Shown in pieces: positions 24,001 to 27,000 of a stretch of DNA of 32,607 bases (within the stretch, counting starts at the first letter, position 1; the number at the start of each line of letters is the position of its first letter). Position numbers: made by a program. Location of the stretch: the IMG/VR virus record IMGVR_UViG_2585427748_000009; one strand, given 5' to 3'. Source of the DNA: a virus (Duplodnaviria; Heunggongvirae; Uroviricota; Caudoviricetes).

Positions 24001-27000
24001 CACCTCATCGGCAACACGCTCTTTTGCCAGGTCCATTTTCTGGCGGTCAGTAAGCTGCGCGTGCTGCGGATCTGCATCAATTGACAAAAAGGTCTGCTGA
24101 AATTTCGGTGACTTCGCCAGCTCAGAATAATCCGCGTTAAGAACAGCATCTGCCGCTGCCATTGCACTCCGCCCTTGCGCACTGACAGTGGAATGGGTGA
24201 TCAGGCCTGCCTGGAAAAAATCCGGCATTTTTTTATCGACAGCTTCGGCTGCCAGTGCTGTGGCTCTTTCCGGCTGCATCCCTGCCGCGATGTATTTTTT
24301 CTCCAGCCCGGCGGTCAGCACTTTTCGCAGAGTGACATCACCCAGCTTTTTAGTCACACCGCCTGCAACCATATCCGGTACAAGCGCACCAATCAGGTTA
24401 ACCCCTTTCGCTACCCAGACCGCTGAATCATCATATCCTTCAGTCATCGGTGTATTCAGCGCCCGCTGCGCCCCCGGCGACATCTTGCCAGTCAGCCATT
24501 CATCCGAGGCTTTAGCGCCGCCACTGACGGCCTTGCCTGTGACCTTCAGACCTTTACCGACAGTATCAGTAACCGCATTTTTTCCATCAGGCAGAGTGTC
24601 GATGACCTCATCCGCCCCCTTGCTGCCACCGACAAAAATATCCTGAACAGTTGCGACTCCCGGCAGTCCCATACGGCTGAACTCATTTAAAATACGTACC
24701 CCTGTTTTTACCGGGCTCTGAATCATCGCATCACCGAGTCCACGGGCCATTTCCCCTGTCCCCCGGACGGACTGGGCGACACCTTTCCCCATAGTTGGCA
24801 ATACATCGCCCAGGCTGAACGACGTGCTGTTGTCCTTCCAGCGATTGGGATCGGAGAAAAACACATCATAGCTGTCAGTCTCTCCCGGCTGCTGAATGTT
24901 CAGGCTGTTGCGGCTCTGGTTGCCAAATTGCGCTTCAGGGCGCTGTTCATCGGAATAAGCCATACAGACTCCATAAAAAAACCCGGCACAATGACCGGGT
25001 ATCAGGAAATAGTATTAACGGGAATGGTGAATTACTGCGCGTAATTCTGTTTCAGACCACGGATAAACTCAGATGCAGAGGCCGCGCTATCATCCCTGGC
25101 CTGTTCCTCCCTGGCCTTTTGAATACGGAGAAAATTCGCATACCCGTGTTCCAGCAATTTCTGATTCTGAGGCTCCAGCATTTCTGGCTGACGGGAGGCC
25201 ACTTCTCTGGCAAATGCCTGCTTATCCGGATCATCACCCGCCCAACTGGTAATCCCTTGTTGAATTTTTTGCTGCTGAATTTGCTGCTGATACTGCGGCA
25301 GTCCCATCGAAGCATAATATTGCGTCACTGCTCCCTGCGCATCACCGCCGTCCTGTGCAACCTTTATCGCTACCTGGCTGGCTCCTTTCTGAAGTTGATC
25401 CGCAGAAAGTCCCTGCTGCTTCGGCGTGAAATAGCCGAAATTTTTCGAAATTTCCGCGAATTTACTGCGTTCCCTGACAAGCTCAACAGCCTTATCAACA
25501 GGCACCGCCAGCACGGTTTGATCATCAGGATGTGCACTGCCGTATTCCGTAACGGGTTTATGTGCTGTAGAGCCATCACTGTATGTGAGATCAAGGCCGA
25601 TAAGTATGTACCCTTCCTGCTGTGCCGGTACTATACTGCCAATCCTGGCCTCTTTTATCGTCTTTTTCCCGGTTGAATCGGGCATGCCAATACGCTGTTG
25701 CAGTTCCGGGCCAAACACCCCGGAAAGGACATCAAGATTCTCCGGCGTATTAAGTGAAGCGATAGCCCTGTCTGGCTTGTCATCAAAGATTTTTTGCAGG
25801 TTGTTCACGGCCTGACCCGCTTTCGCTACATAGCCATCATTCGCCATCAGCCTCAGCGGATTACCCTCTGACAACTGGCCGTAAAGACGCATTGCTGCAT
25901 CCCGATCGCCAGCATCCACAGCCTTTCCAAGCGCCGCCATCACAGGCTGATCGCGCGCCAGCATATCGTTATACTCAAGCCGTCGCTGGTTGTATTTCTG
26001 CATCCGGAGTCGCTGCTGCTCCATACCCAGCGACGCATTCCGGTAATTCTGGTTGGCGTTAAACTCCCTTTGCGGGAATTTCTCACAACACGCTGCATAT
26101 ACCGGAGAATTTTGTCGTCCATTCTCTCACCAGAAACGGGTGCCATATCGGCTGAACCTCAGCAACCAGTTGACGGGGACTTTCGTCCCCGTCGCGGTTT
26201 TCCTACTGCTTACACTGTAAGAACGCCGCAAACTCCGCTCCCCACAAATTCAGCCGGAACTCACACAACGAGCCGTGTAACATCCAGATGGTGAAGATTA
26301 CCGTCATACAAATTGTGACGGTGATGAGCGATTTTTGCGACATAGCGCTTGCCTCCTGAGTGGAGAGGCGCTAACCTTCTACTTGCTTAAGGTATGATGG
26401 TTAGGGCCTCGGGTTAAACAAAATGTTTGACTCGGGGCCTTTCCACATCAGGCCTTCAGGTTCACCTTCCAGCCATCAGCCGAAAGACACCCGCGCATAA
26501 TCTACGATTTTTGCCCTGCACGGGCAACAAAAAACCCGCCATCACAGCGGGTTATGACATGTTGTCGGGTATTACTCAGAATTTCAGGCCAATGCCTGCA
26601 AATAAACCATCAGTTTTCCAGTCGCCAGAGCCTGAGCTTTCATAAGTGACGTCCATAGTAACACTTTCATTGAAGTTAAATTGCGCGCCGACAGACCATG
26701 CAATAGACGTTTTTTTGGTGCTGTTACTTTCAGAAAAACTACCTACACCACCATTAAGATTGTCGTTAACTTTCAAATCATAAGTTACTTTTGCAACCGC
26801 AACACCTGCCATTGAATACACACTGAGGTATTCATTAAACCGCCACGAAGGACCGGATAGTAGACTCCAGTAATTAGCCCTGATATCAGTTCTCGCTGAA
26901 GCTGCCGGTTTTTTTACCTCTCGTGATGGATCGGAAGGCTTAACATCAATGAATGCCTGTGCATTAGTCATGGATCGAGCCCATGCAAAAGAGGTTATAA

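Follow-up and report, generated by a model that had tools for sequence, protein, structure and literature searches.

The 32,607-nucleotide (nt) stretch of DNA analysed here as a whole (the window; IMG/VR virus record IMGVR_UViG_2585427748_000009, Caudoviricetes) carries on its minus strand, directly downstream of a lom gene, a 46-amino-acid (aa) open reading frame (ORF) of the Hok/Gef toxin family at 26203-26343. Together with its predicted promoter, structured mRNA and antisense RNA, this ORF very probably makes up a type I toxin-antitoxin cassette of the hok/sok kind, carried as a self-contained 'moron' after lom by a 933W-like (Sepvirinae, Shiga toxin (Stx)-type) prophage. An initial annotation made from the sequence had described the ORF as an unannotated hok-like gene. 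Its translation and the AGGAGG Shine-Dalgarno (SD) sequence at 26357-26352 were reproduced exactly. The word 'unannotated' applied only to the supplied track of ORFs of at least 60 aa, from which the gene was missing solely because of that cutoff; RefSeq/PGAP annotates it, and the implied novelty was unsupported. The features of the cassette are as follows.

26203-26343, minus strand: hok coding sequence, 46 aa, MSQKSLITVTICMTVIFTIWMLHGSLCEFRLNLWGAEFAAFLQCKQ (ORF listing, Pfam HOK_GEF, RefSeq, identity to a tested peptide, pN/pS)
26499-26527, minus strand: hok promoter, with -35 TTGCCC (26527-26522), a 17-nt spacer and -10 TAGATT (26504-26499)
26130-26492, minus strand: predicted hok mRNA, with +1 near 26492 (GGGUGUC...), from which the Rfam sok/hok-leader model aligns; fold z = -5.7
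26476-26492, minus strand: putative tac element at the mRNA 5' end (GGGUGUC..UCGGCUGA), from the minimum free energy (MFE) fold, RNAalifold, duplex energies and pair counts
26385-26403, minus strand: predicted sokT, the part of the hok leader recognised by Sok through complementarity to its 5' tail; hypervariable
26352-26357, minus strand: hok SD AGGAGG, separated by 8 nt from the ATG; CCUCU at 26362-26366 is its predicted pairing partner
26223-26240, minus strand: in-ORF segment AGCGGAGUUUGCGGCGU, predicted to pair with the start-codon region 26326-26343
26172-26193, minus strand: post-stop stem-loop with a perfect 9-bp stem (GACGGGGAC/GTCCCCGTC) and a GAAA loop, from the 10th nt after the stop
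26138-26155, minus strand: putative fbi element (UCAGCCGAUAUGGCACCC), predicted to pair with the mRNA 5' end; its GCACCC aligns with the hokW 3' element
26349-26377, plus strand: predicted Sok promoter, with -35 TTGCCT (26349-26354), a 17-nt spacer, -10 TAACCT (26372-26377) and +1 G at 26385
26385-26444, plus strand: predicted Sok of about 60 nt, single-stranded over the 14 nt of its 5' tail, then folded into a long hairpin (15-bp core, 26405-26439) and ending in UUUCC

The Hok peptide and its predicted mRNA

The peptide matched the Pfam HOK_GEF profile (PF01848) with 33.2 bits against a gathering score of 22 (E = 4e-8), the alignment covering peptide residues 8-44 and profile positions 6-42 of 42, which bore out the family assignment of the initial annotation. 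It aligned end to end with HokW, Hok-R1 and HokA, and begins with MSQKS followed by an uncharged stretch (LITVTICMTVIFTIWML), the putative hydrophobic helix. Seven positions are reported as conserved in over 80% of a set of 1,264 Hok peptides (M1, C16, T18, L30, C31, E32 and E41 in logo numbering), and the present peptide has the conserved residue at every one, as M1, C12, T14, L26, C27, E28 and E37; in an alignment of 31 subfamily sequences M1 and C27 were invariant, L26, E28 and E37 nearly so, and C12 and T14 were not conserved. Among 5.8 billion proteins searched, 56 clusters were matched, almost all of 46 aa, from E. coli, Shigella and Salmonella, and every named cluster among them was a Hok/Gef family protein. 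The nearest named NCBIfam subfamily was HokA (NF007290), with a score of 38.4 bits so far under the equivalog cutoff of 89 that the peptide is not HokA. The ratio of nonsynonymous to synonymous polymorphism (pN/pS) was 0.27 over 27 unique ORFs, by which measure the peptide is under purifying selection. Judged from its sequence, the 46-aa ORF is a genuine Hok/Gef-family membrane toxin.

The gene itself is listed in RefSeq/PGAP as WP_000078907.1 ('Hok/Gef family protein'), with an Ail/Lom gene on one side and a hypothetical gene on the other. Its DNA is 100% identical in E. coli FORC_069 and other genomes, it is annotated in phage Lyz12581Vzw (Sepvirinae) as well, and the region was matched in 1,550 of 5,426 complete E. 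coli genomes (~29%), in up to 8 places per genome. In a 2026 preprint surveying Hok homologues, the identical peptide, 72_1589, is among the experimentally tested sequences, and cluster 72 carries the label 'high abundance' (Escalera-Maurer et al., bioRxiv 10.1101/2025.08.07.668861). In that work, toxicity on arabinose induction in E. coli is stated for 42 of the 45 homologues tested, and 72_1589 is not among the three named as non-toxic; the toxicity assay proposed in the initial annotation has thus in effect been reported for the identical peptide. Mok, Sok and mRNA structure were expressly not analysed there (bioRxiv 10.1101/2025.08.07.668861). Both the gene and the toxicity of the exact peptide are therefore already known, and the RNA layout described here is additional to the survey. 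Literature searches found no published named description of the lom-adjacent hok and none of its mok-less layout, the survey having left Mok and Sok aside. The impact on genome annotation is small, as standard pipelines already call the gene.

For the comparative analysis of the transcript, 87 related loci were gathered and reduced to 61 unique sequences. The homologous block started exactly at the -35 box of the TTGCCC-17 nt-TAGATT promoter (61 loci), a promoter already pointed out in the initial annotation, and ended just past a GGCACCC motif, with unrelated flanks on either side; the part common to plasmid and chromosomal copies lay at about 26512-26138 (query positions 189-563). The promoter also aligned with the hokW promoter region of 933W. 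With +1 placed near 26492 by conservation and homology, the hok leader would be about 149 nt long, shorter than the roughly 180 nt first proposed.

Folding of the leader and 3' end, a check suggested at the outset, revealed a predicted long-range pairing of the tac/fbi type. In the MFE fold of the single sequence (z = -5.7), 26492-26476 paired with 26155-26138, and RNAalifold gave the same helix. The tac/fbi duplex had energies of -22 to -33 kcal/mol in 19 of 20 variants, compared to about -14 ± 3 kcal/mol for shuffled partners, and locus L009 kept it with CGAU/AUCG in place of CGGCUGA/UCAGCCG. Pair counts for this helix reached 97.6-97.9%, with little true covariation. A second predicted helix encloses the start region, with the AUG paired with 26223-26225 in the MFE fold; it corresponded to RNAalifold columns 164-181 with 267-284, in which 99.3% of cells were paired. 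Synonymous diversity was 0.312 over codons 1-33 and only 0.042 over codons 34-46, a drop that the predicted start-codon helix would explain.

The perfect 9-bp-stem hairpin 10 nt past the stop, described in the initial annotation, was confirmed by folding (-21.9 kcal/mol, z = -5.4, with 0 of 200 shuffles as good). Double-sided covariation was concentrated in this hairpin, where the two top pairs covaried fully (AU to GC in 20 sequences; CG to AU or GC in 24). By analogy, its counterpart in plasmid R1 would be the 3' stem-loop by which the truncated hok mRNA is protected (PMC9841398). Read on the plus strand, the same palindromic hairpin (26171-26194) is followed by CGGTTTTCCT and appeared as a terminator-like site in the terminator scan; such a site might stop antisense read-through into hok.

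Predicted antisense Sok RNA and the absence of mok

Neither Sok nor mok could be identified with confidence in the initial annotation. A search of the plus strand for a Sok promoter, which it had advised, found TTGCCT-17-TAACCT at 26349-26377, and Sok can now be identified with good confidence as an in silico prediction; mok, on the other hand, was indeed missing. The predicted Sok folded with -30.3 kcal/mol (z = -6.0), compared to -16 kcal/mol on the opposite strand, which is less stable because three G-U pairs turn into A-C mismatches. All 14 hairpin variants were more stable on the Sok strand (on average -21.8 kcal/mol, against -12.0 kcal/mol on the other strand), and the Sok -10 box was invariant in 32 of 33 variants. 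The annotated sokW gene of 933W has the same promoter hexamers and spacings, the same position and the same RNA shape as the predicted Sok (-29.9 vs -28.1 kcal/mol), and in Sp5 the antitoxin no longer acted once the -10 region of sokW was mutated (PMC8621323).

Among 27 near-identical loci, nucleotide diversity (pi) was 0.36 in the Sok tail and its target, compared to 0.004-0.07 in the ORF, the stems and the 3' untranslated region, so that the antisense recognition segment was about 10 times more variable than the remaining cassette. The presence of a hypervariable tail beside invariant stems suggests ongoing selection on the antisense interaction. A variable recognition segment also fits selection against cross-talk among the up to 8 matching places per genome.

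No mok frame was found in the window: all three frames stop at about 26380-26400, and no ATG, GTG or TTG then occurs in either alternative frame before the hok ATG. Among the homologues, 40 of 60 lacked a mok-like overlapping frame, and in the remainder such frames started at inconsistent positions. A conserved GAGG in the leader is taken here as the presumed counterpart of the R1 mok SD; in 0 of 24 leader variants was it followed by a start-like codon, even a non-canonical one, with a frame reaching hok. In the alignment with hokW, the 14 nt bearing the mokW ATG were missing at this locus. Two candidates for a leader peptide were rejected: an in-frame mok, or N-terminally extended Hok as in hokW, was ruled out by an in-frame UAG inside the invariant Sok -10 box, and a 4-codon AUG mini-ORF at 26474 (70 codons in nine relatives) was not conserved, had no SD and started 19 nt from the 5' end. 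By these comparisons, the absence of mok is a property of the whole subfamily and not damage to this copy. The mok-less layout would be a modest variant.

Prophage context and downstream deletion

The following features lie outside the conserved cassette.

26533-26553, minus strand: intrinsic terminator of the upstream lom gene, a 9-bp stem followed by TTTTTGTT (terminator scan)
26088-26119, minus strand: apparent degenerate remnant of an ancestral intrinsic terminator, inside the start of the downstream phrog_610 gene
26070/26071: deletion junction, with 2,019 bp of E. coli FORC_069 missing, 68 nt downstream of fbi (blastn)
Up to 11802: host molybdopterin oxidoreductase genes, on the window-start side of the prophage end

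After the host genes, the gene order in the window is the prophage end (antirepressor, Ead/Ea22, DUF551), a 2,783-aa giant gene, the hok cassette, lom and the tail-tip genes. The upstream gene was assigned to Lom (phrog_108, E = 1e-69), and the T-tail of its terminator lies directly against the hok -35 box. Two tandem 808-aa molybdopterin oxidoreductase paralogues (6892-11802) adjoin the prophage end, which places the host-prophage junction at about 11802-12206; no tRNA gene was found in the window. An Rfam sRNA-Xcc1 match at 12208-12292 (plus strand), with 53 bits exactly at its gathering score, overlapped the first codons of the AntA/P22-type antirepressor gene (12206-12961) at the prophage end. 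The gap between the giant LPD-type gene and the DUF551 gene (16210-16611) measures only about 400 nt, where 933W holds ygiW and hokW/mokW/sokW; the hokW module is accordingly absent from this prophage, and neither the module nor its leader sequence was found when sought in the window.

On the other side of the cassette, blastn aligned positions 1-4631 of locus L001 with 30700-26070 of the window and positions 6651-8631 with 26071-24091, both with more than 99.9% identity, and no meaningful microhomology was seen at the 26070/26071 junction. The deletion (affecting 25032-26146) removed most of the phrog_610 gene and the genes after it and truncated the phrog_601 gene. The 330-aa gene named as a neighbour in the initial annotation is present as an ORF, but proved to be the 5'-truncated phrog_601 remnant left by this deletion, with a match only from profile position 89 of 443. 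For the hypothetical gene that lies downstream (WP_050487963.1 in FORC_069), PGAP gives a start at 26146 (ATGGCACCC), inside fbi; as the phrog_610 profile begins at residue 9 of this call, the real start is probably the ATG at 26122 (MDDKILRY...). Distant homologues (e.g. L055, L005 and L058) have a canonical terminator about 25 nt past fbi (CCCGCAGC...GCTGCGGG followed by a T-run). In seven IMG/VR contigs (L052, L057, L060, L072, L077, L080 and L081) the stored sequence ends exactly 3 nt past the hok ORF, which may reflect provirus-boundary calls or assemblies tending to break at this cassette.

Proposed mechanism and comparison with known hok systems

In the mechanism proposed for the cassette, the hok mRNA would be transcribed from its own promoter, starting near 26492 as conservation and homology indicate. 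According to the in silico folds, tac would pair with fbi, the SD would be held in a local CCUCU:GGAGG hairpin and the AUG in a helix with codons 34-40, leaving the full-length mRNA translationally closed. As in plasmid R1, trimming of the 3' end to the post-stop hairpin would then yield a translatable mRNA. The Sok RNA of about 60 nt transcribed from TTGCCT-17-TAACCT on the plus strand would bind the leader through its 14-nt tail, and RNase III would destroy the duplex, on the model of R1 and hokW-sokW. A drop in Sok, e.g. after prophage loss or induction, would allow the 46-aa Hok to be made from its own strong SD without mok, and the toxin would insert in the inner membrane and kill or lyse the cell.

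Several observations weigh against such a functioning hok/sok cassette. Both promoters, both RNA ends and Sok itself are predictions; the hok promoter matches 8 of 12 consensus positions and the Sok promoter 7 of 12, and a generic promoter scan called neither, which for the hok promoter is attributable to its having only 8 of 12 positions, so that both rely on conservation and on the comparison with sokW. The Rfam RF01794 'sok' model matched over its full length at 26332-26492, with 35.1 bits (E = 9.2e-6) below the gathering score of 59; since the end of this model lies in the hok SD and AUG and its match is on the hok strand, it indicates a hok-type leader and not the Sok-coding strand. Standard pairs filled 98.9% of alignment cells, compared to 38-47% with partners slid by 1-3 columns, a control that flatters the structure because the structure was derived from the same sequences, and the tac/fbi and start-region helices rest mostly on conservation, not on compensatory change. 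No minus-strand intrinsic terminator was found after fbi in the terminator scan of the window, and close relatives lack one too. In partition-function modelling, the accessibility of the SD and AUG was equally low in the full-length, 3'-truncated and Sok-blocked mRNA, so that the switching on of the toxin without mok is inferred. The idea that Sok binding induces the SD-sequestering hairpin was dropped as a shown result after this modelling and kept as a hypothesis.

These observations could also be accommodated by an intact toxin ORF in a silent or decaying locus, where, for want of mok or a terminator, Hok would never be translated natively and the cassette would be passively carried. Such an explanation gains from the missing mok frame, as mok translation is regarded as essential in plasmid R1 (PMC9841398), from the SD and AUG being predicted as sequestered in every modelled state, from the degenerate terminator, and from the 2-kb deletion immediately downstream, which indicates an already damaged prophage. 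Some relatives are themselves degenerate: L026 has its 5' part replaced, with loss of the hok promoter and tac, L051 has an early stop, and in L061 tac and fbi are no longer complementary (-11.9 kcal/mol, no better than for shuffled partners) and the Sok hairpin is weaker. However, the purifying selection on the peptide is at odds with passive carriage, and the promoters, tac/fbi, the Sok hairpin and the SD are kept in hundreds of loci from three genera. That none of the 24 leader variants has mok speaks for a working design free of mok and against recent decay, and the hypervariable Sok tail against invariant stems suggests continuing selection, so that a silent locus is considered improbable. 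A chance small ORF with a fortuitous hairpin, and no gene at all, would suit the small size of 46 aa and the promoters missed by the generic scan, but is refuted by the Pfam E-value, the hundreds of conserved homologues, the purifying selection and the reported toxicity of the identical peptide, and hardly deserves any weight. The same holds for the locus being simply the known hokW-sokW of 933W/Sp5 in another phage: the phage family, the Sok promoter hexamers and the overall RNA layout are common to both, but the two occupy separate positions in the 933W genome, the two toxins differ in length and sequence, the hokW leader is absent from the window and mok is annotated only in hokW, which makes this identity practically untenable.

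A functional hok/sok-type cassette thus being the preferred interpretation, a broader joint reading is offered tentatively, as a possibility held with less than even confidence: that the 46-aa hok/sok loci of cluster 72 would form a mok-independent subclass with private antidotes, and would constitute a second 933W/Sp5 system beside hokW-sokW. Under this reading, Hok would be translated from its own strong SD, repression by Sok would need no leader peptide to block and would work through RNase III cleavage and/or a shift of the leader into the CCUCU:GGAGG SD-sequestering hairpin, and each of several co-resident prophage copies would have an antidote of its own by virtue of the hypervariable Sok tail and target.

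Compared to the hok/mok/sok system of plasmid R1 (parB), the present locus shares the Hok family, the tac/fbi end pairing and the protective post-stop stem-loop, as well as a Sok with a single-stranded 5' tail and one hairpin, located 5' of the ORF and wholly inside the mRNA leader. It differs in having no mok frame, a peptide of 46 aa instead of 52 aa, no post-fbi intrinsic terminator in its lineage, and a prophage instead of a plasmid location. The identity to HokA of E. coli K-12 was 45% over 40 residues, with the W-M...SLCE...AAFL.C pattern shared. No difference exists at the protein level from the cluster 72 peptide 72_1589 (WP_000078907.1).

A close comparator, hokW-sokW of 933W/Sp5, was shown by experiment to be a toxin-antitoxin pair of type I; it requires RNase III and Hfq and helps phage to be released following induction (Takada et al. 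2021, PMC8621323). The two are alike in phage family (Sepvirinae), Sok hexamers and spacing, Sok shape and alignable tac/fbi elements. HokW, in contrast, has 51 aa, against 46 aa here, and is about 36% identical over 42 aligned residues, and its locus has an annotated in-frame mokW leader, whereas none exists here. Their positions also differ: in 933W, hokW/mokW/sokW lies beyond the giant gene at 58460-58734, whereas the present locus follows lom. In the 933W reference record nothing is annotated between lom and the gene after it, yet at 45660-45800 (NC_000924; 2161-2301 of locus L091) an ORF codes for a 46-aa Hok identical to the present one, and the same gap has the tac element and the Sok -10 box. 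With this ORF after lom and the separate hokW locus, 933W has two hok loci, of which one is annotated, and would thus carry two hok/sok systems, as related Stx phages such as Sp5 presumably do. The deletion of hokW-sokW only halved phage release, and redundancy with a second locus was not considered (PMC8621323); if the joint reading is true, an overlooked hok/sok in 933W/Sp5 could partly mask the hokW-sokW deletion phenotype. The residual interest of the locus lies in its mok-less regulatory layout and in this overlooked second hok/sok of 933W-type phages, set beside the mok-bearing hokW-sokW.

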